Origin: a virus
Lineage: Duplodnaviria; Heunggongvirae; Uroviricota; Caudoviricetes
Length of the DNA: 16,468 nt
Virus record (IMG/VR): IMGVR_UViG_2690316184_000007
Direction: 5' to 3' (one strand)
Shown here: positions 1 through 16,468 of the stretch, piece by piece
Position numbering within the stretch: position 1 is the first letter of the stretch
Layout of the letters: each line of letters begins with the position of its first letter
Notes under the pieces: generated by a model
Told to the model about the DNA's origin: nothing
The model's input: the letters and a program-made list of their open reading frames with translations, nothing else
The model's database searches: none
Program-made: the position numbers and the translations under genes

Positions 1-288
1 TCAATGGTTGGCGTCATTATCTTTTTCTCTTTCTGAACGTGAATATTGCGGTGGACGGTTCATCAGCTGTGGGGCAAGACGTTTTGCCACCTGAAGAATA
101 ACCACCACCGCAGCGGGAAGCATGAGCAAAACACCGAGAAAAATCATCAGAATCTGCACTTCTGGCCGAGAAAATGGCTCAGGCAGCGACAGGGAGTCGC
201 TTACCGACAGCAGCGCCACCGCCAGTAGCATCATTCCGATAAATTCCAGTATCAACACGCCTTTAGGCAATTTACCGATCGCGCGCAT
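1..288 (-). CDS. ybjC: Small inner-membrane protein YbjC (DUF1418 family), 95 aa
   Basis: Complete 95-aa ORF with two hydrophobic segments (stop TGA at 1-3). Size and position, divergent from grxA, match the E. coli ybjC-grxA-ybjM-ybjL neighbourhood; recognised from memory, not searched. Confidence 0.75.
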   Translation of the reverse strand: MRAIGKLPKGVLILEFIGMMLLAVALLSVSDSLSLPEPFSRPEVQILMIFLGVLLMLPAAVVVILQVAKRLAPQLMNRPPQYSRSEREKDNDANH

Positions 289-447
289 ACGCTTCCCTCT
301 GCAAAGTGAGCCTTCAGTCTAAAACTTTTCACTGTATTGTGTTTAACAGTTATAGCTTTTAGCAATTAATGCAACAGGTTAAACCTACTTTCAGCGAATA
401 CATTTTAGCGTGATCATTACAGGCATAAATCTATGAGGAGAGAAATA
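289..447. promoter_or_regulatory. Divergent intergenic promoter region between ybjC and grxA
   Basis: 159-bp AT-rich gap between divergently oriented starts. grxA is known to be OxyR-regulated in E. coli, but I cannot delimit the binding site by eye. AGGAG Shine-Dalgarno lies just upstream of the grxA ATG at 448. Confidence 0.4.
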
Positions 448-705
448 ATGCAAACCGTTATTTTTGGTCGTTCGGGTTGCCCTTACTGTGTGCGTGCAAA
501 AGATCTGGCTGAGAAATTGAGCAATGAACGCGATGATTTTCAGTATCAGTATGTAGATATTCGTGCGGAAGGGATCACTAAAGAAGATCTACAACAAAAG
601 GCAGGTAAACCCGTAGAAACCGTGCCGCAGATTTTTGTCGATCAGCAACATATCGGCGGCTATACCGATTTTGCTGCATGGGTGAAAGAAAATCTGGACG
701 CCTGA
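448..705 (+). CDS. grxA: Glutaredoxin 1, 85 aa
   Basis: Translation MQTVIFGRSGCPYCVRAKDLAEKL... has the CPYC active site and the length of E. coli Grx1. The true start is the internal ATG at 448 (after AGGAG), not the ORF-track start at 433. Confidence 0.95.
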   Translation: MQTVIFGRSGCPYCVRAKDLAEKLSNERDDFQYQYVDIRAEGITKEDLQQKAGKPVETVPQIFVDQQHIGGYTDFAAWVKENLDA

Positions 706-715
706 TCGTCTGACA

Positions 716-750
716 AGCCCTCGCGTTGAGGGCTTTACTGATTTTTTCTG
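716..750 (+). terminator. Rho-independent terminator downstream of grxA
   Basis: Hairpin AGCCCTC-gcgtt-GAGGGCT at 716-734 followed by a T-rich tract (ttactgattttttctg) on the + strand; it abuts the ybjM stop on the other strand. Confidence 0.6.
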
Positions 751-1112
751 TGCTGTGGTTTAAACAAACTACTGATAAATAAGAAACACAGTGCCCCCAG
801 CGCACACCAGAACACCGCGCTTAGTAACCATGCCAGCTCTTGCCAGAATGAGCGCGTCGGTGAAAAAAACAGCCGCATAATGAGCATCGAACAGGGTGCC
901 GCCAGCATTGCGCCAAACAGAGGTTTCAGGACTTCTCTACGCTGTGAAAAGAAGCTGGCGACTGCTCCAGGAAGAATGAAAAATAGCAAGCCGATTTCAG
1001 GATGCCCGGCAGCCCGAAAAGCGCCTTTCATGTGCGTCGCCAGAAAAAGGCACACCACAATGAAGAGGACAAAACAGCAGATTGCCCCCGCCCAACGTTG
1101 TTTATGTTTCAC
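735..1112 (-). CDS. ybjM: Inner-membrane protein YbjM, 125 aa
   Basis: 125-aa ORF with four hydrophobic helices; size and position between grxA and ybjL match E. coli ybjM. Confidence 0.8.
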   Translation of the reverse strand: MKHKQRWAGAICCFVLFIVVCLFLATHMKGAFRAAGHPEIGLLFFILPGAVASFFSQRREVLKPLFGAMLAAPCSMLIMRLFFSPTRSFWQELAWLLSAVFWCALGALCFLFISSLFKPQHRKNQ

Positions 1113-1381
1113 TCGTTCCTCCTGACACTGCGTCTATCGAACACATTTTTCGCCAGTGTGGCGTTCAGTAAGATAAAGCCGCTTCGCATTCCATGCTAAT
1201 ATAGGCCAACGCAATTCATATAGCCGTTGATACCTAATGTGATTACACTAGTAAAATATATTGTTACTTTACTATCGTTTAGGTGCGCTGAATGAATCTG
1301 CGCCCTGAATTCTGGTAAAAAACATTATCGTAAATTACCATTTCTTTCAACAGCTTACTAGTAAACAAGAAGTTAGCCTCC

Positions 1382-3067
1382 GTGAATATAAACGTCGCCG
1401 AATTGTTAAATGGGAATTACATTCTGTTATTATTTGTGGTCCTCGCGCTTGGGCTATGTCTCGGAAAGTTACGACTTGGTTCGATCCAACTGGGTAATTC
1501 CATTGGCGTTTTAGTCGTATCGCTGTTATTAGGCCAACAACATTTCAGCATTAACACCGATGCGCTTAATCTTGGCTTTATGCTGTTTATTTTCTGCGTC
1601 GGGGTCGAAGCCGGACCGAACTTTTTTTCCATTTTTTTTCGCGATGGGAAAAATTACCTAATGTTAGCACTGGTGATGGTTGGCAGTGCGCTGGTGATCG
1701 CCTTAGGGTTAGGTAAGCTGTTTGGCTGGGATATTGGCCTGACGGCCGGTATGTTAGCAGGCTCTATGACGTCGACACCGGTTCTGGTCGGTGCTGGCGA
1801 TACACTGCGTCATTCCGGCATGGAAAGCAGGCAGCTCTCACTGGCACTGGATAATCTGAGCCTCGGGTATGCCTTAACCTATTTAATCGGTCTGGTGAGT
1901 TTGATTGTTGGTGCGCGTTACTTGCCGAAATTGCAGCATCAGGACTTACAGACCAGCGCCCAGCAAATCGCCCGCGAACGTGGCCTGGACACTGATGCCA
2001 ACCGTAAGGTTTATTTACCGGTGATCCGCGCCTATCGCGTCGGCCCGGAACTGGTGGCCTGGACCGACGGCAAAAATCTGCGTGAACTGGGTATTTATCG
2101 ACAAACCGGCTGCTACATTGAACGTATTCGACGTAACGGGATTCTGGCAAATCCAGACGGTGATGCCGTGCTACAAATGGGCGATGAAATAGCGTTGGTA
2201 GGCTATCCCGACGCCCATGCCCGACTCGATCCCAGCTTCCGTAACGGTAAAGAAGTTTTCGATCGTGACCTTCTCGACATGCGTATCGTCACTGAAGAAG
2301 TGGTCGTTAAAAACCATAACGCTGTAGGTAAACGTCTCGCACAACTGAAGTTGACCGATCACGGTTGCTTCCTTAACCGCGTCATTCGTAGCCAGATTGA
2401 GATGCCGATAGATGACAACGTCGTGCTTAACAAAGGTGACGTTTTACAAGTCAGCGGCGATGCCCGCCGCGTAAAAACCATCGCCGATCGCATCGGCTTT
2501 ATCTCGATTCACAGCCAGGTCACTGACCTGCTGGCATTCTGCGCCTTCTTTGTTATTGGGCTGATGATCGGGATGATCACCTTCCAGTTCAGCACATTCA
2601 GTTTCGGCATGGGGAACGCTGCCGGGTTGTTATTCGCCGGAATTATGCTGGGCTTTATGCGTGCTAACCACCCGACCTTCGGTTACATTCCGCAAGGTGC
2701 ATTAAGCATGGTGAAAGAGTTCGGCTTGATGGTGTTTATGGCAGGCGTTGGTCTGAGCGCCGGTAGCGGTATTAATAACGGCCTGGGCGCGATTGGCGGT
2801 CAGATGTTGATTGCCGGATTAATTGTCAGTCTTGTGCCCGTGGTTATCTGTTTCTTGTTCGGTGCTTATGTATTGCGAATGAACCGCGCACTGTTGTTCG
2901 GCGCAATGATGGGCGCACGCACCTGCGCGCCGGCAATGGAGATCATCAGTGATACAGCTCGCAGTAACATCCCTGCGCTGGGCTATGCGGGCACCTACGC
3001 AATCGCCAACGTCCTGCTGACGCTGGCAGGGACAATCATCGTCATGGTATGGCCAGGATTAGGATAA
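1382..3067 (+). CDS. ybjL: Putative transporter YbjL (AspT/YidE/YbjL family), 561 aa
   Basis: 561-aa ORF from a GTG start. N- and C-terminal hydrophobic halves flank a soluble central region (about residues 190-370), the architecture I recall for the YidE/YbjL family. Length matches E. coli YbjL. Confidence 0.85.
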
Positions 3068-3179
3068 AACTGAAGTTGCCCTGAAAATGAAATTTTTTTG
3101 CACAACCGCAGAACTTTTCCGCAGGGCATCAGTCTTAATTAGTGCCACTGCTTTTCTTTGATGTCCCCATTTTGTGGAG

Positions 3180-3222
3180 CCCATCAACCCCGCCATTTCG
3201 GTTCAAGGTTGATGGGTTTTTT
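3180..3222 (+). terminator. Hairpin plus T-run, possible ybjL terminator or part of the prophage attachment region
   Basis: Inverted repeat CCCATCAACC / GGTTGATGGG (10 bp each) around a 17-nt loop, then TTTTTTG on the + strand. The long loop and the ~110-bp distance from the ybjL stop make assignment uncertain. Confidence 0.4.
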
Positions 3223-3302
3223 GTTGCCTGAAATTTATGCCTTTTAAAATCATGATGTTAGAAGCACTGTTTTTTAACGATGGCGACAAAATGGCGGCAG
3301 CG

Positions 3303-3521
3303 TCAAAGAGAGAGCGCCACCTGTCCTGATTTCATTGGATGCGGCTGAACCGGATTTGACTCTTTTGGCGTTGCAATCGAACGAACAAAAGTTTCATGGG
3401 TAACAAAAGTATGGCTGCAGTTAATGTTCTGGCACTGGTTGTAACGCTCTTTGGTCAATGAAGATACCTGAAAACTGCTGCGAGTATGGGCGGCACTTCC
3501 ACACAGTGGGCAAATCATCAT
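3303..3521 (-). CDS. ogr: Ogr-type zinc-finger late-gene transcription activator, 72 aa
   Basis: MMICPLCGSAAHTRSS...KERYNQCQNINCSHTF... shows the Cys4 pattern (CPLC ... CQNxNC) and length of P2 Ogr and sits immediately downstream of D as in P2. Start taken at the internal ATG, not the ORF-track start at 3554. Confidence 0.85.
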   Translation of the reverse strand: MMICPLCGSAAHTRSSFQVSSLTKERYNQCQNINCSHTFVTHETFVRSIATPKESNPVQPHPMKSGQVALSL

Positions 3522-3611
3522 TTTTCGTGTTCTCCCCATTTTTGCTAAATTCACAATAATGATACCGCATTATTCCATTTTGCAAACTTAAAAGTTCTCC
3601 ATTGCGAAGAA

Positions 3612-4712
3612 TCATTCCATTTCGAAATCATCAATCCTCACTTCAAGCTCCAGACTGGTCGTAAAACCGTTATCCGGGCTGACGGTATGCGTCAGAGTCG
3701 TAATGGTCCATTCCGCATCATCTATCGGCTGTTTAAAGCCACTGACTTTCACTGGCATTTCCGTGTAGAGATCTGCCCGCCCTTCCGCCAGTTGTAGCGA
3801 GAATGATGCAACGCCGCGTTGCAGGCGTTCCCACTGCATTTTCGCTGCCCGTTCGGCGTTGCTCCGGTTGGCATAAGTGCGATTAAGTACCAGCACGTTT
3901 TCATCCGTACCCACCAGGTAATCGCCCTGCTTCGCTTCCGGCTCTTTCTTCTGCTTCTTAGTCCTGCGCTTACGCTTCACCGTGGTGCTTTCTTTCTTCG
4001 CGGGTTCGCGGGTATGCAACCAACTGGCAATTACGCCCGTGTAGGCTCCGCGATCTGCCAGGGTAAAGCGGTGACTGTCGCCGTCCTTACGTGTGATTGA
4101 GATCACCGGCAGTGGTTTACCGCTGGCGCTTTTGCCCTGTCCCTGCCGGATGAATAACAGATTGCCATTTTTCACCGACGCGATGGCACCGTACTGGCGC
4201 GCCAGCCGCATCAGAAAACTGCCGTCACTCTCATTAGTCTGGTCTATATGCTCCACGGGCTTATCCGACAGGTCTTTACCCAGTGCCATCTTCAGCTTAT
4301 GACGCGCGGCTATTTCCTTCACCAGTTCCCCGACAGTGGTCTTGTGCCACGATTTTTCACGGCGGGTATTCAGCGTTTCCCTAAAATCAGCACTTCGCGC
4401 CCGGATAGTCAGGCGATCCGGTGCGCCGGTGTGTTCAATCTCGTCCACCGTGAATGCCCCTTTCGGGAAAAGCGGCTGCCCCTTCCAGCCCAGCGCCAGC
4501 GTGATGACCGCACCACGGCGCGGCAGCACGATTTTTCCGTCGGCGTCGTCCAGCTCCAGATCAATCTGGTCTGCTTCAAAGCCCCGATTGTCCGTCAACG
4601 TCAGACTCATCAGGCGGTTATCCAGCACAGTGGTGATATCCTTCCCCTCAATACTGATGCTGAATGCGGGAGTTTTGTTGCCTTTGTTAAGCAGTTCAGA
4701 GCTGAAATTCAC
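3612..4712 (-). CDS. D: P2 gpD-like tail protein (late control gene D), 366 aa
   Basis: 366-aa ORF immediately downstream of U with an ATGA stop/start overlap (4709-4712) and upstream of ogr; translation recognised as the gpD family from memory. Confidence 0.85.
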   Translation of the reverse strand: MNFSSELLNKGNKTPAFSISIEGKDITTVLDNRLMSLTLTDNRGFEADQIDLELDDADGKIVLPRRGAVITLALGWKGQPLFPKGAFTVDEIEHTGAPDRLTIRARSADFRETLNTRREKSWHKTTVGELVKEIAARHKLKMALGKDLSDKPVEHIDQTNESDGSFLMRLARQYGAIASVKNGNLLFIRQGQGKSASGKPLPVISITRKDGDSHRFTLADRGAYTGVIASWLHTREPAKKESTTVKRKRRTKKQKKEPEAKQGDYLVGTDENVLVLNRTYANRSNAERAAKMQWERLQRGVASFSLQLAEGRADLYTEMPVKVSGFKQPIDDAEWTITTLTHTVSPDNGFTTSLELEVRIDDFEME

Positions 4713-5194
4713 GACAGCAGCCCTCCCACCGTTTTACTGATATCGCTTAAGGCAGACGTTGCCGTATCCTGCAAATTATTCAGCTGCGCACTGAGATCAC
4801 CGAACATATCGGACAGGGATTCATCCACCCGTTTGAGCGACAGGGTAAACTCAATCCGGCGCGGCATACCATCGCGGAAAAACTCCGTTTTAGTCTGATT
4901 CAGTCCCTCAATCACATACATGCCGTAAATCGTGCCGCTGCCTTCAATCAGAGGCCATGCTTTCCCCTGTTCTGCCATCTGCTCCAGTGCCAGCAACGAC
5001 AGCCTGCCGCCTGTTATCTCCGGCATAAGAACACCGGAAAGCGTCAGCATGTCGTTGTCCGGTCCCAGAAACTGCGTGGACGGACGACGATTTACCCGGC
5101 TGTTAGCCGCATGTCGCCAGCTGCGCTGATACTGCAGTTCCTGATACGGCACGGTGCGCAGCATAAACACGTACAATCCCAGCACCATCATCAT
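4709..5194 (-). CDS. U: P2 gpU-like tail protein, 161 aa
   Basis: 161-aa ORF between the T remnant and D with ATGA overlaps at both ends; size and position match P2 gpU. Confidence 0.8.
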   Translation of the reverse strand: MMMVLGLYVFMLRTVPYQELQYQRSWRHAANSRVNRRPSTQFLGPDNDMLTLSGVLMPEITGGRLSLLALEQMAEQGKAWPLIEGSGTIYGMYVIEGLNQTKTEFFRDGMPRRIEFTLSLKRVDESLSDMFGDLSAQLNNLQDTATSALSDISKTVGGLLS

Positions 5195-5646
5195 GCGTCG
5201 TATCCCCCCTGATCGCTGTAGTTACTCCTGGCTTTTGCCTTCAGCCTGCGTTCACGTTCATCAAGCTGGCGGGCCACCTCCCGCGCAATATCCTGCGCAC
5301 TTTGTCCTGGCTGCGTCTGAATAATGATCTGCGTCGGTGCCTCAATCCGTTGAGCGGGCGGCACAGTGGCTGCACGACTCACCATTGCTTCACCGCCTTT
5401 CGTGGGAAGTGCCAAAGGATGCAACGGTGGAAGCTCTGCTGGCGCGGCAGCAACACCCATCATTCCGGCAACAACGGCAGCCAGTGCAGCTGTATTTCTC
5501 CGGCTGGTCACATTTGCCGGGCCGTTAACAATTTCCGGCCCGTTTTCACCGACGATGCCAAACTGCCCGCGCGGGATATAGCCGCCGCTGTCATACATCC
5601 CCGCAAAGCCATATCCCCATGCCCGGTTATCTTTCTGCCATCCCAT
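5191..5646 (-). pseudogene. T: 3' remnant of the tail tape-measure gene T (C-terminal ~150 codons only)
   Basis: Reading frame overlaps the U start by ATGA as T does in P2, but an in-frame stop lies at 5656-5658 and the upstream DNA encodes a portal fragment on the opposite strand. Gly/Ala-rich C-terminal sequence is typical of tape-measure ends. Confidence 0.65.
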
Positions 5647-6122
5647 CCGCTTTGCTCAACGAGTCCGCCACGCTGTTCCGCCGCAAGTATTACATCAACG
5701 GCAGCCATGCAGGCTTCATCATGTATATGACCGATGCCGCGCAGAATCAGGAGGATGTGAACAATCTCCGCAATGCGATGAAAAGCGCCAAAGGCCCTGG
5801 CAACTTCCGCAACCTGTTTATGTACTCGCCTAACGGCAAAAAGGACGGGATTCAGATCATCCCGTTGTCAGAAGTCGCGGCGAAGGATGAGTTTCTGAAT
5901 ATCAAAAATGTCAGCCGCGATGACATGATGGCAGCGCATCGTGTGCCGCCGCAAATGATGGGGATTATGCCGAATAATGTTGGGGGGTTTGGGGATGTGG
6001 AGAAGGCAAGTAATGTATTTGTTCGTAACGAACTTATCCCCTTACAAAAACGTATCGAACAATTAAATCAATGGATAGGAAACACAATTATTAATTTTTT
6101 ACCATATTCTCTCCAAAGTTAA
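5619..6122 (+). pseudogene. Q: 3' fragment of the portal gene Q (C-terminal ~150 codons)
   Basis: Translation ...RVPPQMMGIMPNNVGGFGDVEKASNVFVRNELIPLQKRIEQLN... is recognised as the C-terminal region of P2-type portal proteins. The ORF is about half the full portal length and has no plausible upstream continuation. Confidence 0.65.
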
Positions 6123-6134
6123 AAAATAGCATAT

Positions 6135-6157
6135 GGGTGCATAATGTTTATGCACCC
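6135..6157. terminator. Bidirectional hairpin terminator between convergent Q' and the TIR gene
   Basis: Perfect 9-bp inverted repeat GGGTGCATA-atgtt-TATGCACCC in the 40-bp gap between the two convergent stops; T-rich tract on the minus-strand side (atatgctatttttt). Confidence 0.5.
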
Positions 6158-6162
6158 TCTTA

Positions 6163-6780
6163 TTACCAGTTAAAAATTGATGAGCTGCGAATTGCAGGAA
6201 CATCCGATGGATTTCGTTTAGCAGCTGGTTCCATCAACTTACGCTTATTAAATGCCTGATCAATATAATACTCAGGATTTTTAATAAAGACAGAGTATTT
6301 TACCAATGCACAATATACGTCAGAGTCATTATAATGGGGAACTGTTTTTTCATAAACATGATTCTTTCTAACCAGATAAGGCAAATAATAATCATATCCC
6401 AAACCTGGCGTTCTTAGACTTATAGAACATCCGCATGATGGATCTGCACATACTGCAGGAGTAAACACACTGTCGTAAATTTCATCTCTGATAACACCAA
6501 TTAGACCATTATAGTTTTCTCCCCAGAGTGATGCTTGAATTTCAGTGTTTACAAATGGACGATTTTTGGTTTCCGTTCCAATAAGAACGACAGTAACCGT
6601 TGAGTCTTTTAAAAAATCCTCACGAATAGTCCTCATTATTGTTTCATCAGTGTTAGTTGTACTAATGTCACCATCACTTACCGACTTATCAATAAACGAT
6701 TCTCCTCCGAATAAATCAATAATCTCATCTTTGAGATCTTGTTCGTTAGCATGATGATAACTAAGAAACGTCTTATGCAT
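6163..6780 (-). CDS. TIR-like domain protein, ThsB-like (DUF1863 / PF08937-type), 205 aa
   Basis: N-terminus MHKTFLSYHH... and the core STVTVVLIGTETKNRPFVNTEIQAS resemble the B. cereus ThsB pattern as I recall it (VFFSFHY ... VTCVLIGSQTFNRRWVRYEI), including a Glu at the expected catalytic position (E80). Start ATG overlaps the upstream gene's stop (TAATG). Strongly AT-rich relative to flanking prophage DNA. Confidence 0.7.
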   Translation of the reverse strand: MHKTFLSYHHANEQDLKDEIIDLFGGESFIDKSVSDGDISTTNTDETIMRTIREDFLKDSTVTVVLIGTETKNRPFVNTEIQASLWGENYNGLIGVIRDEIYDSVFTPAVCADPSCGCSISLRTPGLGYDYYLPYLVRKNHVYEKTVPHYNDSDVYCALVKYSVFIKNPEYYIDQAFNKRKLMEPAAKRNPSDVPAIRSSSIFNW

Positions 6781-7511
6781 TATTCACTCCATTTATCAAC
6801 ATTTATATCAAACTCTTTGACTACCTTATCATTGAAGAAATCGTTTACTTCTTTAAAACCTTCCAATACTTGACTAAAATGATAATAATGCTTTTGTATA
6901 ATACTTATAGGGGTTAAATGATACGGCAATGATATAAATTCGCCGTTAGGGTCTCTATCCTTTGTGGTCACTTTATCATGATCTGAAACATATTTATGCC
7001 ATCTCCGATAATTATTTTGATGTTTTGTTAAAAAAGAGTTTAAGGTTTTCAAAATTTCATTTGAAAGTAAATACAGTTTTTTATCTCTTTTTTTCTTCAC
7101 ATCTAGTAATTTCATTTCATCTCTAATGAATTTATAGCACTCATAATATGAGTTTAAAACTTCTTCAATTGAGTCATAATTCGGATCAAATTTAAATAAT
7201 GTTCGCTTCGTATCCAGATAATTTTTTACGCTCTTTTTAAAAAGAAGATCAGACTTATTTAGTAAAATATTAATACCACCAAAACTAAGTTGCTCCAATC
7301 TCAATGAATATCTTTGATGAAATGCACCGACCAGCAAGATATAAGCAACTAAAAATAGTATTAATACTGATAAAAAAGCACGAATTATGCTTACATTTGA
7401 CATGAAATTAACTATAAACCACCATTTTTCAAACGGTGAAAACGGAATGCTCCCCATGATAATAAGTAGAAGAACAAAGATACAACTCCATAAAACCCAC
7501 AATCTGTACAT
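6780..7511 (-). CDS. Membrane protein with two N-terminal transmembrane helices and a ~150-aa Lys/Tyr/Asn-rich C-terminal domain of unknown function; first gene of the TIR operon
   Basis: ORF-track frame extends to a TTG at 7556; I prefer the ATG at 7509-7511 (MYRLWVLWSCIFVLLLIIMGSI...), preceded by AAAAAGGA. Hydrophobic helices at about residues 4-22 and 50-75 of the ATG-start protein. The C-terminal domain has no Gly-rich Macro motif and no SIR2-like motif I can see. Confidence 0.6.
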   Translation of the reverse strand: MYRLWVLWSCIFVLLLIIMGSIPFSPFEKWWFIVNFMSNVSIIRAFLSVLILFLVAYILLVGAFHQRYSLRLEQLSFGGINILLNKSDLLFKKSVKNYLDTKRTLFKFDPNYDSIEEVLNSYYECYKFIRDEMKLLDVKKKRDKKLYLLSNEILKTLNSFLTKHQNNYRRWHKYVSDHDKVTTKDRDPNGEFISLPYHLTPISIIQKHYYHFSQVLEGFKEVNDFFNDKVVKEFDINVDKWSE

Positions 7512-7663
7512 AAGAAAGATCCTTTTTCTTTTTATAATACTGCAACTACACCTCAAGTCAAAACCCTCTTCTGATATTACCCTCTACTACAGTAACCCAT
7601 CACATGACCTCCGACTTATCAGAAGACTAGCCAAACTTTCTCAATCAAATCAGGTTGCGCGCG

Positions 7664-7682
7664 CTCGTATCCCCGCCACGCC
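7664..7682 (-). other. cos-like site (P2/186-type cohesive-end sequence)
   Basis: Minus strand reads GGCGTGGCGGGGATACGAG. The first 13 nt match the 19-nt cohesive end of phage 186 as I recall it (GGCGTGGCGGGGAAAGCAT; P2 GGCGAGGCGGGGAAAGCAC). Recalled from memory, not checked. Confidence 0.4.
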
Positions 7683-7731
7683 TGCCCGCTTTATGTAGTG
7701 GTTTTCATGCACCTGCATGATCTACGCAAAA

Positions 7732-7751
7732 GCCCGCCAGTTCTGGCGGGC
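7732..7751 (-). terminator. Rho-independent terminator ending the minus-strand small-ORF/DinI-like transcript
   Basis: GC-rich hairpin GCCCGCCAG / CTGGCGGGC with TTTTG immediately following on the minus strand, ~135 bp downstream of the DinI-like stop. Confidence 0.5.
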
Positions 7752-7886
7752 CTTAGCAAAAACGATCCTCAAACGATCATGCGATCTCATGCGGCATAGA
7801 CATGCACTACAGAGCTAACGCCTCGCAAGGGCTCGTTGTTCAACCTTGCTGACGCCAGAAACAAGTTCAGACGCCAGCAACGTTTC

Positions 7887-8472: not shown

Positions 8473-10845
8473 TTAATACAGGTTCCGCCATTTATCATCT
8501 TCCTTCAGACGCTGGTTCCGATAGAAGATACGCAGGCCTGCTCCTGATGGAATACTGCCACCGCGAAGGAGCAAATCGACTTCTTTCTCGCTGCCATCAA
8601 ATCCTCTGGACTTCAGTTCATAGACGAGCTGCTGATGCTGATGATCTGTAATTCGCTGTTTGTAGTCTTTACACCTTTTCGGTTTAACCAGGCGCAACCT
8701 TACTGCCAGCTCCCGGCGATCTTTTTTGCTCATACTGTGCAGGTAATCGTGCAACTCCTTGTCATCCATGCGGGTAATGTCCGTTCTGGTGTCCCCATCA
8801 GCTGATTTATCTTTCTCCTGTTGGTTCAAATTTTCAGCAAGGGGACAGTTATTGCCACGAGTCCAAGGGGCGCAAGCGCCCTGGTCGGCTGCCGCCTCCT
8901 GAACATCAACGGCCTTACGAACCATTTTCCACTTCACGGCATGAGTGCAGATCTTGCCCTCTGCAATAGGTGACCAGATGCCATAAATACGAATGCCGTG
9001 ATCGCCATAGGCGGTCGGCTCTTCGTTGATTTCATAAGCGGTTCTGATGAGGTGATATTTGCGGGGAACCAGTACGCCGCCCTGCTTCATGATGTAGGTG
9101 GCAAAACAACCAGCATCAGCAGCAGCCAGGATGGCATCAAGGCGCGGGTTATCCAGTACCCGCGCACCTGCTTTTTTGTCCCCCTGTTGCCTTGCCGCCT
9201 GACCAGCCAGCAATCGCAGTTCACGGTAAGCCTGACGCCCCGGAATGCCAAAGAAGCGGAATTGCTGAACACGATGCAGAGACGCCCAGGCATTAACGTA
9301 TTCAGCATTATCACGCAGGGATTTCCCCGTTTCCTTGCTGATCTCGCCAGCCAGACCACGCCCGTCAATGTTCTTACTGATGTATTTCGCGATGTAGCTT
9401 GTTGGCGTACCTTTGCGCGGGTTAATCAACTCAGACTTAAAGCGCGGCCCAGTGTTATTGCCCAGTTCCTCGCGGTCTTCACGGATGGCAAACTTACGCA
9501 GTAATGCAGTGATGGCGCGGCGGTCTTTTTTGCGCATAAAACACAACAGGTGCCAGTGAACTGTACCGTCATGATGCGGCTCAGCCACCCGCACGCCATA
9601 CCACCGCAATCCGGCTTTGTGCATCGCCTTACGAAATGCAGCAAACATGCCGACCAGATAATCACTGCTTTGTCTTACCGTCGCATTTGTCCAAGTTGGG
9701 TTGGGCCTGCCATTATTTAGCGTGGAATGGAAACGTGACGGACAGGTGATGGTGTAGAAAACGGCGCAGTCACCGCGCATTTCCGCGATAAGCTCCAGGC
9801 CTTTAACACAGGCCATCATCTCATTGCGGCGATGCGCAGGGTTGCTGCTGCTGGCGTTTACCACATCCTCCATGTCCAGCGTGTCGCCGTCTTCGTTCAC
9901 CAGTTCATGAGAACGAAAAAACTCCAGCGACTTACGGCGCTGCTCACGTTTATGCATCACGGCTTCATAGCTGACATAGGGAGATGCTTTTTTGCTGACC
10001 AGGCAGACAGCACGCAACTGCTCTTCCCGCCATTCGCAACGCATCTTCCATAATTTCCGGTACCACCAGTCAGCGCACAACATACGCGCCAGCGAACCCG
10101 GAATGAGTTCATAGGGCACGGGTTTACGGCGGTTTCTTTTCCGGCGGAGTTGCTCAAACGCAGGCGGGATGACATCCAGATGCAGGGTTTCCGCTGCCAC
10201 CTTTTCCCATGTCTTGCGGATTTCTTCTGGCTTAACGTCATCGGTGACATACAAATCGCCACAAGCTGCATCAAGGCACATGCTCATATGCGCAGCTACC
10301 AGGGTGGACAGGCGTTTCACCTGATCCTGACTCATTTCAGGCAGGATCAGCAGGCCGTCCAGCCCTTCATGGCTTGCCATAAAGCGAAAAGAAGTGGATA
10401 GCTGACAGTCGCGTACATGCTCCAGCCGTTCCAGACATGGCTTAATCGTCTCACGCAAATAGCGGGAATAAGCCTTTGGCCTGCCCAGGCTGCTGAAGTA
10501 TTCAATACGTTGCATCAGCGGCTTGCTGATATGGGAAGGCTGGGCATTGACGTCCGCCAGAATGACCATATCTGGATTAAAACGCTGCTGCTCATGCGCC
10601 AGCTTTGCCCGACTAATGAGCTTATCCTGCTCCATTTCGCGCTGGACAGGATCACGGGATTCATTAAAGAAATAACGCTCCCAGACCTGATCACTCAGTG
10701 CCTCGCGGCGCAGCTGTTCCTGCTCGTTATCGGCAGCGTACAGAGCGATCAGGTTTGAAAGCGCAGAAACTGAAGATTGCTCTTCTGTCTCTACGTAAGG
10801 ATTGATTGCTTTTTTCTCAGCATTCCAGGAATAGCTGTAGTTCAT
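8473..10845 (-). CDS. A: P2 gpA-type rolling-circle replication initiator (HUH endonuclease), ~790 aa
   Basis: Contains the HUH motif ([11 protein letters not shown]) and the two-tyrosine active-site motif ([13 protein letters not shown]). Start preferred at the ATG 10843-10845 (MNYSYSWN...), which overlaps the upstream stop as TAATG; the ORF track extends to 10896. Confidence 0.85.
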
Positions 10846-11675
10846 TACGCAATCTCCAGTTCGAGCTGTGAAGGCTGCAAACCATTCGACAGCCAATCAG
10901 AAACTGAAGGTGGGCGAACAGCTTCAATTGCACCTTTTAAAATTGCGCAACGGTTTTTCAGAATGACAGCTTTCAGCTCCTTTTCCGTCAGATTGCGCGA
11001 ATACTCAGCCTCCTGAATAGCCCGCGTCAGCTCAGGATATTTGCTATTAAATTTGGGGACATTGCAGGCAAGATTTGTACTGTCGGCAGTCGCCAGTGGG
11101 TAATTTCCCAACACACGACCGTCAAGCATGCGCAAACCATGAACAGCTGTTTTGAAATTGTGTCGGCAATAAATTGCTTCAAAAGCGTCCTGCATACGAC
11201 GATGCCAGTGCGCAGTTCTGATAGCCGCATATTCACCAGACGATCCAAAGCAGACACGAGGCCATTCACGACATAGCTCGATAAGCCGATCGATTGACTC
11301 GTGCAGATGCCAGACGGGAGTTGCCTTCCCGTAGAACATTTTCGGAACTTCGTTTATCAGGGCATCATTGTCACGTTCACCTCCGTCCACAACATCAGGA
11401 ATGACAAAAAAAGCGACCTTAGGATGGTGGTAATAGTTCAGGAGCCATTTATAAAAATCACTCCAGTTAATTTTTAGCCCACGCACCCATGCAGAAAATG
11501 CGCCGTTATCAATGCCGACGACCTGAGCGTGCTGAATGGACGCCGCAATCTGATCTGGTCGTACATAGGAGACGAAAGCGCCAGCTCCGCTCACCGCAAT
11601 ACGATGAACGTCGCCAGCACTTCCCCAGACAGGCGTCCCATGGAAATGATGAATTCCGTGGTGCATTTCTTTCAC
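10845..11675 (-). CDS. Conserved prophage early-operon protein of unknown function, 273-276 aa, His-rich N-terminus
   Basis: Long ORF between dam and A, coupled to both (GTG overlapping the dam stop, or ATG at 11664-11666; TAATG with A). No motif I can assign with confidence. Confidence 0.55.
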
Positions 11676-15415: not shown

Positions 15416-16468
15416 ATGGCAGTACGAAAACTCACCACAGGAAAATGGCTTTGCGAATGTTACCCCGCCGGACGTAGTGGGCGTCGTGTGCGTAAACAAT
15501 TCACCACCAAAGGCGAAGCTCTGGCTTTTGAGCGCCATACGATGGAAGAAACCGAAGCAAAGCCCTAGCTGGGAGAATCAGTGGATCGTCGAACACTGAA
15601 AGACGTGGTTGAGCTATGGTTCAAACTACATGGTAAATCTCTAACCGCTGGGCAGCATGTCTATGATAAATTGCTGTTGATGGTTGACGCTCTGGGCAAT
15701 CCCCTTGCAACCGATCTCACCTCTAAAATGTTTGCCCACTATCGAGATAAACGCCTGACAGGTGAGATCTACTTCAGCGAGAAATGGAAGAAAGGAGCAA
15801 GCCCGGTCACCATTAACCTGGAGCAAAGCTATCTAAGTAGTGTTTTTAGCGAACTATCCCGCCTGGGCGAATGGTCGTATCCAAACCCACTGGAGAACAT
15901 GCGAAAATTCACCATCGCAGAAAAAGAGATGGCATGGCTTACCCATGAGCAGATTGTTGAACTGCTGGCTGATTGCAAACGTCAGGACCCAATTCTGGCA
16001 CTGGTAGTCAAGATATGCTTAAGCACAGGCGCACGCTGGCGAGAAGCAATAAACCTTACCCGATCACAGGTGACTAAATACCGAATTACCTTTGTAAGAA
16101 CGAAGGGGAAGAAAAACAGAAGCATCCCTATCAGTAAAGAGCTTTATGAAGAGATCATGGCGCTTGATGGGTTCAATTTCTTCACAGACTGCTATTTTCA
16201 ATTTTTATCCGTGATGGAAAAAACGTCAATCGTGCTCCCTCGCGGTCAACTGACACACGTTCTGCGCCATACGTTTGCGGCGCATTTCATGATGTCGGGT
16301 GGAAATATCCTTGCTTTGCAAAAAATCCTCGGACATCACGATATAAAAATGACTATGCGTTACGCTCATCTGGCACCGGATCATCTGGAAACGGCGCTCC
16401 GTTTCAATCCTCTGGCAACGCTGCCAAGTGGCGACAAAGTGGCGGCAGCGGTTGGCATTACCCCGTAA
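15416..16468 (+). pseudogene. int: P2-type tyrosine integrase interrupted by an in-frame amber codon
   Basis: ATG at 15416 (after GGAGGG) opens MAVRKLTTGKW...RRVRKQFTTKGEALAFERH, matching the P2 Int N-terminal arm-binding region. TAG at 15566-15568 lies in the same frame as the downstream 295-codon ORF, which carries catalytic motifs (LSTGARWRE, HVLRHTFAAHF, MRYAHL). The stop TAA is the last three bases of the window. Confidence 0.8.

Follow-up and report, generated by a model that had tools for sequence, protein, structure and literature searches.

The window, that is, the whole stretch of 16,468 nucleotides analysed here (IMG/VR record IMGVR_UViG_2690316184_000007, Caudoviricetes), consists of E. 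coli chromosome (ybjC-grxA-ybjM-ybjL) from position 1 to about 3200, and of P2/186-like prophage for the remainder, up to the window end. From left to right, the prophage contains attR, ogr, D, U (minus strand), a 3' fragment of the tape-measure gene T (T', minus strand), a 3' fragment of the portal gene Q ('Q, plus strand), a hairpin, a two-gene cargo, cos and the early region. The individual features are listed below.

3212-3225: core of attR, ATGGGTTTTTTGTT, a 14-bp direct repeat; right boundary of the prophage remnant
3303-3521, minus strand: intact ogr/delta-like late-gene activator (PF04606 on the called 72-aa gene; phrog_603; no RefSeq pseudogene flag)
3612-4712, minus strand: intact gpD tail/late-control gene (PF05954 Phage_GPD, E 9e-27)
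4709-5194, minus strand: intact gpU tail gene (PF06995 Phage_P2_GpU, E 2e-44), whose start overlaps the T stop
5191-5621, minus strand: T', the 3' 431 nt (143 codons including the stop) of a 3078-nt tape-measure gene; DNA 100% identical to the NCTC9008 locus (L017) up to its position 7075
5620-5621: deletion junction, at a TG that occurs at each of the two parental breakpoints (three-way alignments with T and Q of 4LV2017, SC516 and NCTC9008)
5620-6122, plus strand: 'Q, the 3' 503 nt of a 1032-nt portal gene, residues 177-343 (166/167 against the 343-aa NCTC9008 portal; PF04860; phrog_68 positions 175-340 of 344)
6135-6157, plus strand: terminator-like hairpin following 'Q, where phage 186 has tW (consensus scan, 10-pair stem)
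6163-7511, minus strand: cargo cassette in the cos-proximal hotspot, 100% identical to the cassette of the intact NCTC9008 prophage
6163-6780, minus strand: ThsB-like TIR protein of the cassette (PF08937, E 1e-14; PADLOC ThsB models, best E 4e-12)
6780-7511, minus strand: 243-aa partner protein of the cassette, with a hydrophobic, TM-like N-terminus and no detectable family
7657-7748, minus strand: retained cos region, 77% identical over 93 nt to the circularised end junction of phage 186
7887-16468: retained early half (Pfam gene calls on identical contigs, PHROG matches, no pseudogene flags in RefSeq)
15416-16468: integrase, part of the retained early half

The P2-type gene order int-CI / cII-...-A ... 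cos-Q ... T-U-D-ogr, as established by Pfam, PHROG and gene calls, places the element among the P2/186-like phages (Peduoviridae), and its DNA is 96-100% identical to annotated P2-like phages and prophages; the gpD protein even has the same accession, WP_001011758.1, as that of the intact prophage of E. coli NCTC9008. The early half contains genes for dinI-like, gpA replication endonuclease, TGT/DpdA-like, dam, traR, DUF2732, DUF5347, fil and cII products, an apl-position gene, and genes for the CI repressor, a ydcA-like protein and the integrase. The prophage is bounded by att direct repeats, one copy of which adjoins a tyrosine integrase, as expected for an integrated element. The position of attR in the window agrees with the attR annotated in Klebsiella phage 4LV2017, and the attL copy matching its core lies 75 nt past the window end, beside int. 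At the corresponding locus of APEC O78, the 14-bp repeat is present between ybjL and ogr and between int and rcdA, and the two copies are 13,331 bp apart, which gives the size of the remnant between the att cores (about 13.3 kb).

Within the element, T and Q are the only genes flagged as pseudogenes in RefSeq. None of the early, replication, immunity, integrase or cargo genes is flagged, in agreement with an earlier sequence-only reading of this DNA, according to which the regulatory, replication and cargo genes had been retained. The same reading had placed, between 5600 and 5690, a deletion junction at which a 3' fragment of T, on the minus strand and still coupled to U, abuts a 3' fragment of portal Q on the plus strand. 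Such a junction is indeed present, at window 5620/5621: in alignments to three intact P2-like genomes, the match passes from T to Q exactly here, and in a megablast search against phage genomes the T-side match stops at window 5621 and the Q-side match begins at 5620. The reading would have failed had the two fragments turned out not to derive from T and Q, but protein alignment, Pfam and PHROG all identify them as such. The ORF at 5191-5646 (minus strand) aligns with 142 of 143 identities to residues 883-1025 of the 1025-aa T protein of NCTC9008 and matches tape-measure PHROGs at their C-terminal ends, and the ORF at 5619-6122 (plus strand) scores above the gathering threshold of the Pfam Phage_portal family. 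The corresponding RefSeq labels are 'tail tape measure protein, incomplete, missing N-terminus' and 'phage portal protein, incomplete'. The predicted size of about 150 codons for each fragment was nearly right, the actual counts being 143 (T) and 167 (Q). The stop codon of T' overlaps the start codon of U (ATGA at 5194-5191), and T' is thus still coupled to U.

The intact parent reads ...CCCCATG/ACGG... in T and ...GGCCTG/CCCGG... in Q, and the window reads ...CCCCATGCCCGG... across the joint. On one side of the joint, the open frame of T' runs on to an ATG at 5646, and in this way acquires eight foreign codons that are antisense Q. On the other side, the A at 5619, which comes from the T side, changes the CTG codon of Q Leu177 to an in-frame ATG; no promoter-like site facing the ORF so initiated was found in a consensus scan. 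Alignment with NCTC9008 revealed no IS, long repeat, recombinase site, inserted DNA or mobile DNA at the joint. An inverted repeat of 10 nt terminates 2-4 nt short of the T breakpoint, and another, of 9 nt, begins at the Q breakpoint of the window; both are short and imperfect. Two arms collinear with one parent, an overlap of TG only, within the range of 0-10 nt taken for this class of event, and no mobile element are what is expected of illegitimate recombination.

A further boundary was noticed at the distal end of 'Q. In the interval 6092-6122, blastn homology to the portal genes of Klebsiella P2-like phages ends 23-30 nt before the Q stop and the sequence becomes AT-rich, whereas prophages with the same cargo are identical through the Q stop codon; therefore, the boundary of cargo swapping seems to fall within the 3' end of Q.

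Intact prophages at the same rcdA/ybjL att site were found among complete E. coli genomes in strains NCTC9008 (NZ_LR134236.1) and SC516 (NZ_CP025048.1). They share with the remnant the integration site, the gene order and the TIR cargo cassette but, unlike it, possess a complete 19.6-kb late region. Window 1-5621 aligns to positions 1455-7075 of the NCTC9008 locus (L017), and window 5620-7805 to positions 26683-28868. There are no mismatches over window 2999-5621 and 5620-7740: the 22 mismatches of the left arm all fall in the chromosomal flank (below 2999), and in the right arm mismatches begin only at 7741. The segments ogr-D-U-T' and 'Q-cargo are therefore 100% identical in DNA to the intact NCTC9008 prophage, and the deletion is collinear, removes 19,609 bp (L017 7076-26684) and has a 2-nt TG microhomology, which answers the question, raised with the sequence-only reading, of whether microhomology exists at the junction. 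The comparison with SC516 gave the same deleted length.

What has been lost corresponds, in P2 terms, to the 5' half of Q, P, O, N, M, L, X, the lysis genes, R, S, V, W, J, I, H, G, FI, FII, E and most of T. In the intact relative, the deleted interval contains the 5' half of Q, terminase P, scaffold O, capsid N, terminase M, L, X, holin, lysozyme and spanins, and also R, S, a 1.75-kb moron, V, W, J, I, the tail fibre genes, sheath, tube, E/E' and residues 1-882 of T. This fits the single deletion proposed from the P2 gene order, which was to have removed the 5' half of Q together with terminase, capsid, lysis and most tail genes. Since terminase, scaffold, capsid, head completion, holin, lysozyme, spanin, baseplate, fibre, sheath and tube genes are all missing, the element has the gene content of a defective prophage. 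To judge from this content, the production of particles would be impossible without a helper, and the earlier statement that the prophage cannot make particles agrees with the loss of the capsid, terminase, sheath, tube and lysis genes.

The chromosomal flank behaves differently from the prophage. Over window 1-2998 (ybjC to ybjL) there are 22 differences from NCTC9008 (0.7%), against 100% identity in the adjoining prophage arms, suggesting that this type of phage had recently arrived by horizontal transfer in different backgrounds, before the deletion.

The identical junction is present in 17 of 5,426 complete E. coli genomes, in which 600-bp and 1,414-bp segments spanning it are 100% identical, and also in an IMG/VR contig and in two metagenome contigs. 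The exact 167-aa product of 'Q is encoded on the NCBI chromosomes CP007491, CP004009 and HE964769 and on two metagenome contigs; where these five sequences overlap the window, their identity to it is 99.93-99.99%. That the joint might be an assembly artefact or a chimeric join was considered from the outset, but the same junction in 17 complete genomes, coming from different laboratories, hosts and countries, as well as in IMG/VR and metagenome contigs, leaves this explanation with practically no credibility, and as far as independent assemblies show, it is refuted. A search for the exact 40-mer of the junction in GTDB contigs, one genome per species, gave no match, from which nothing can be concluded, the deletion being confined to a single clone.

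Most of the carriers were isolated from poultry and a few from humans, in several countries. Those that have been typed belong to ST23 (E19057 and APEC O78) or ST369 (E123) (PMC10740950), so that the deletion is, as had been suspected, common to related strains. Carriers reported as O78:H4 were considered as a second host lineage, which would imply horizontal spread, but this was rejected: their flanks are near-identical, and the strains are typed ST23 or ST369 (PMC10740950). A comparison of E19057 with APEC O78 over 41 kb, of which 18 kb and 10 kb are chromosomal flank, gave 3 SNPs, and these two carriers are therefore clonal; between the window and carriers, 2-3 SNPs were counted in 16 kb. 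The absence of any divergence between the arms and the intact prophage indicates that the deletion is recent.

Beyond the directly observed breakpoints, microhomology, gene content and strain distribution, the origin of the remnant can be sketched with considerable confidence: it is very probably the scar of one recent internal deletion in a P2/186-like prophage, a single event in an ancestor of the ST23-complex O78 strains that has since been inherited vertically. The parental Peduoviridae prophage was integrated between ybjL and rcdA of E. coli. In the lysogen, an illegitimate, homology-independent joining with only the TG microhomology, possibly by slippage or by end joining after breakage, would then have linked T, 431 nt before its 3' end, to Q, 503 nt before its 3' end. 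The resulting loss of 19,609 bp took away all the head, packaging and lysis genes, nearly all the tail genes and all four late-promoter regions, and U and D were deprived of the late promoter region formerly upstream of FI. Because T and Q are transcribed in opposite directions, their 3' ends are now head-to-head. The product is a 13.3-kb cryptic prophage, presumably able neither to build particles nor to lyse its host, that keeps CI immunity, integration/excision, gpA replication, ogr, cII, cos and the cos-proximal cargo. The event is likely to have happened once, recently, in the ancestor of the ST23-complex avian-pathogenic O78 clone, with vertical inheritance since then, and the persistence of the remnant may be accounted for by the loss of the lethal lytic programme together with hitch-hiking. 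It should be noted that one step and several successive deletions would look the same here, since no intermediate was seen, and that a 2-nt microhomology would likewise not discriminate between replication slippage, end joining after breaks and topoisomerase-mediated exchange.

Related events were sought with a query composed of U, T' and 'Q, able to detect only deletions that end in the 3' part of T and in the 3' part of Q or P. Four further independent T-to-Q/P deletions were found in E. coli:

H2: att ssrA; T' of 431-433 nt; 'Q of 396 nt; microhomology ATGAC
PEC41: att ybjL; T' of 804 nt; 'P of 186 nt and the whole of Q; microhomology of about 2 nt
11PC: att ybjL; T' of 1,410 nt; 'Q of 395 nt; microhomology T
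ZH177: att ybjL; T' of 924 nt; 'Q of 255 nt; microhomology CAGA

All four have the same architecture as the window, with ogr-D-U-T' head-to-head with 'Q or 'P-Q, followed by cargo and early region. However, their breakpoints and cargo differ from those of the window, and each arose separately, on phage alleles that have diverged. Loss of the late region by deletion is therefore a recurrent fate of E. coli P2-like prophages, the shared architecture being partly imposed by the search. The Klebsiella phage record MK416012 (18 kb), which had been taken as a candidate for a further deletion, was discarded as a partial record.

Some of these breakpoints nearly coincide. The window and H2 have their T breakpoint in common within 2 nt, although 65 of 2,285 positions differ between the two T arms and the closest of these is 166 nt away from the joint; H2 and 11PC have their Q breakpoint in common within 1 nt, in Q alleles that are not the same. 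The sequence AT^GAC stands at both shared sites (window 5619-5621; L007 9296-9300; L012 10887). The alternative that the H2 junction is the window junction with a second deletion of 108 bp was rejected, in that the H2 arms differ to within 166 nt (T) and 12 nt (Q) of the joint. On a uniform model, the joint chance of the coincidences is about 1e-3, a rough and post hoc figure for five events. The near-coincidences of the window with H2 in T, and of H2 with 11PC in Q, thus hint at non-random sites, contrary to a model of purely random breaks.

One could then imagine that the T and Q breakpoints are hotspots, for topoisomerase/gyrase-type cleavage or for stalling beside short inverted repeats, which repeatedly give rise to T'/'Q deletions. 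Five independent events, with a T site common to the window and H2 and a Q site common to H2 and 11PC, speak in favour of site-preferred breakage, as do the 10-nt inverted repeat near the T breakpoint and the 9-nt one at the Q breakpoint of the window. On the other hand, each site is represented by just two events in a survey restricted to the 3' ends of T and of Q/P, inverted repeats this short are common by chance, and scans of IMG/VR and metagenomes gave no new event at either site. Specifically, the patterns run on IMG/VR for more events of this kind returned only the two known junction types; one Q-site pattern had no match, the other matched a natural C/T polymorphism, and all of the 80 loci returned were intact except the one of H2 type. 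The metagenome scan returned chance 19-mers and one intact T. Gyrase cleavage at the AT^GAC sites is a conjecture drawn from the consensus of the enzyme. On balance, we regard such hotspots as unlikely. Slightly more doubtful still is the general proposal that P2-like prophages may have preferred break sites in T (CCCCAT^GACGG) and in Q (TATAT^GACCG), which would offer a favoured, possibly topoisomerase-driven route to elements that are non-lytic but still carry immunity and defence cargo, along with cos and the genes for replication and integration. The coincidence of breakpoints is a possible weak hotspot, or chance.

The hairpin downstream of 'Q corresponds to the annotation of phage 186, in which tW is located between the portal gene and cos. 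In the retained cos region (window 7657-7748, minus strand), the equivalent of the cohesive-end 19-mer is found at approximately 7664-7682, where GGCGTGGCGGGGA matches at all of the first 13 positions of the annotated 19-nt 186 cos. A P2 cos 19-mer had given no match at three or fewer mismatches, and cos was then located by alignment to the annotated ends of phage 186. The cos region is on the dinI side of the cargo, and the cargo is thus between cos and the portal gene; in phage 186, by contrast, the accessory gene orf97 is on the other side of cos. The position of the cargo in the remnant is that of the known gpA-gpQ defence hotspot (PMC9122126).

As for the content of the cassette, the PADLOC ThsB models match only its TIR protein. 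The 243-aa partner gave no sequence match in Pfam, PADLOC, PHROG or PDB, and a search of the cargo proteins by sequence against solved structures returned nothing usable. A Thoeris system requires, besides the ThsB TIR protein found here, a ThsA effector (SIR2-SLOG, or Macro with TM helices), which sequence searches did not find; the cargo was therefore not typed as a Thoeris system. In chi7122 (HE964769), 1-nt deletions in T6 homopolymers at the positions corresponding to window 7222 and 15053 split the gene for the cargo partner and shorten the ydcA-like gene. This was considered as decay of the cargo and rejected: both indels are 1-nt losses in T6 runs, and the frameshift is probably a sequencing error.

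The sequence-only reading had gone on to suggest that the deleted prophage is a domesticated remnant, kept by selection for its cargo; more broadly, selection could act on the immunity repressor, on the TIR cassette or on both. In line with this idea, every non-structural gene is unflagged in RefSeq, the cargo is conserved at 99.9-100% across all 17 carriers, the cassette occupies a known gpA-gpQ defence hotspot, and a recent survey reports defective P2-like elements whose defence genes are near-identical to those of intact phages, domestication being left open there (PMC13586616). However, with arms undiverged from an intact prophage and 3 SNPs between two carriers over 41 kb, conservation is to be expected even without selection, and the clonality of these carriers means that it says nothing about selection. 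The typed carriers are all ST23 or ST369, and differences of 3 SNPs in 41 kb and 2-3 SNPs in 16 kb leave no statistical power. Moreover, the same cassette, present in 42 of the 5,426 complete E. coli genomes, is found in 25 that do not have the T'/'Q junction, and in the two of these that were examined (NCTC9008 and SC516) it belongs to intact prophages. Finally, of this putative defence cassette only the TIR half matches a known defence model. Domestication is therefore conceivable but rather doubtful, and the data are accounted for no less well by a recent clonal deletion.

The retention of cos, int, the apl-position gene, gpA/ori and ogr raises another prospect, namely that a co-infecting P2/186-like phage could package and spread the remnant as a helper-dependent satellite. 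Indeed, the cos region is present, int, CI, cII, gpA and ogr are intact, and Ogr is a homologue of P4 delta according to the annotation of phage 186. Yet the junction occurs at one att site only, with near-identical flanks where these were compared, and there are no capsid-size genes of the sid/psu type. In addition, by the established biology of P2/P4 packaging, 13.3 kb, or about 40% of the parental genome, would not be an integer fraction of a P2-size headful. Mobilisation by a helper is thus very improbable. Like the remnant, the P4-like satellites are small (11-13 kb) and integrated, and have a P2-type cos, an integrase, an activator of the Ogr/Delta family and a defence hotspot adjacent to cos. 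Nevertheless, the remnant cannot be classed with them, as its called genes include neither sid, psu, the psu-delta-sid module nor an alpha-primase/helicase, and its replication is by a P2-type gpA; all of its genes are P2/186 genes, and it differs from P4-like satellites in having arisen by deletion of a helper-type phage.

Parallels are also offered by decayed P2-like prophages. One from the E. coli B lineage, in strain C41(DE3) (NZ_CP010585.1, 868150-892451), occupies the same rcdA/ybjL site and has decayed by internal deletions, while keeping hotspot cargo beside the portal gene, as the remnant does. In contrast to the remnant, it has suffered several separate deletions (D, the lysozyme gene, gpA/cII and others), its portal and terminase genes are intact, and its cargo is a retron St85 system, not the TIR cassette. 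The defective P2-like elements surveyed in PMC13586616 (NAR 2026) likewise carry cos-proximal cargo of defence type, near-identical to that of intact phages, in the gpA-gpQ hotspot (PMC9122126). In that survey, the primase/replication gene is the core gene most often pseudogenised, whereas in the remnant it is the virion module alone that has been lost, with no flag on the replication and mobility genes.

A cryptic P2-like prophage with hotspot cargo is therefore of a known kind, and it is the precisely mapped scar that is new. The remnant is a case of ordinary, recent prophage decay, and knowledge of prophage decay is not changed by this scar. What it provides is a base-level record of the conversion of a P2/186-like prophage, in a poultry-pathogen clone of global distribution, into a cryptic element of 13.3 kb, for which an essentially identical intact phage of the progenitor type, the NCTC9008 prophage, has been identified. 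This is useful for annotation, RefSeq already flagging both pseudogenes, and the junction could serve as a clonal marker for the ST23-complex O78 lineage. The remnant is also a clean example bearing on the question whether chromosomal defence genes are stabilised by defective P2-like elements.

The early region (dinI to int) of the NCTC9008/SC516 type is only about 96-97% identical to that of the remnant. A 276-aa gene located between gpA and dam (window 10845-11675, minus strand) matches phrog_887 ('queuine tRNA-ribosyltransferase', TGT/DpdA-like). The gene is lacking in the NCTC9008/SC516 type, and the segment 10771-11750 is missing as a whole from these otherwise close prophages, which points to a second variable cargo site.
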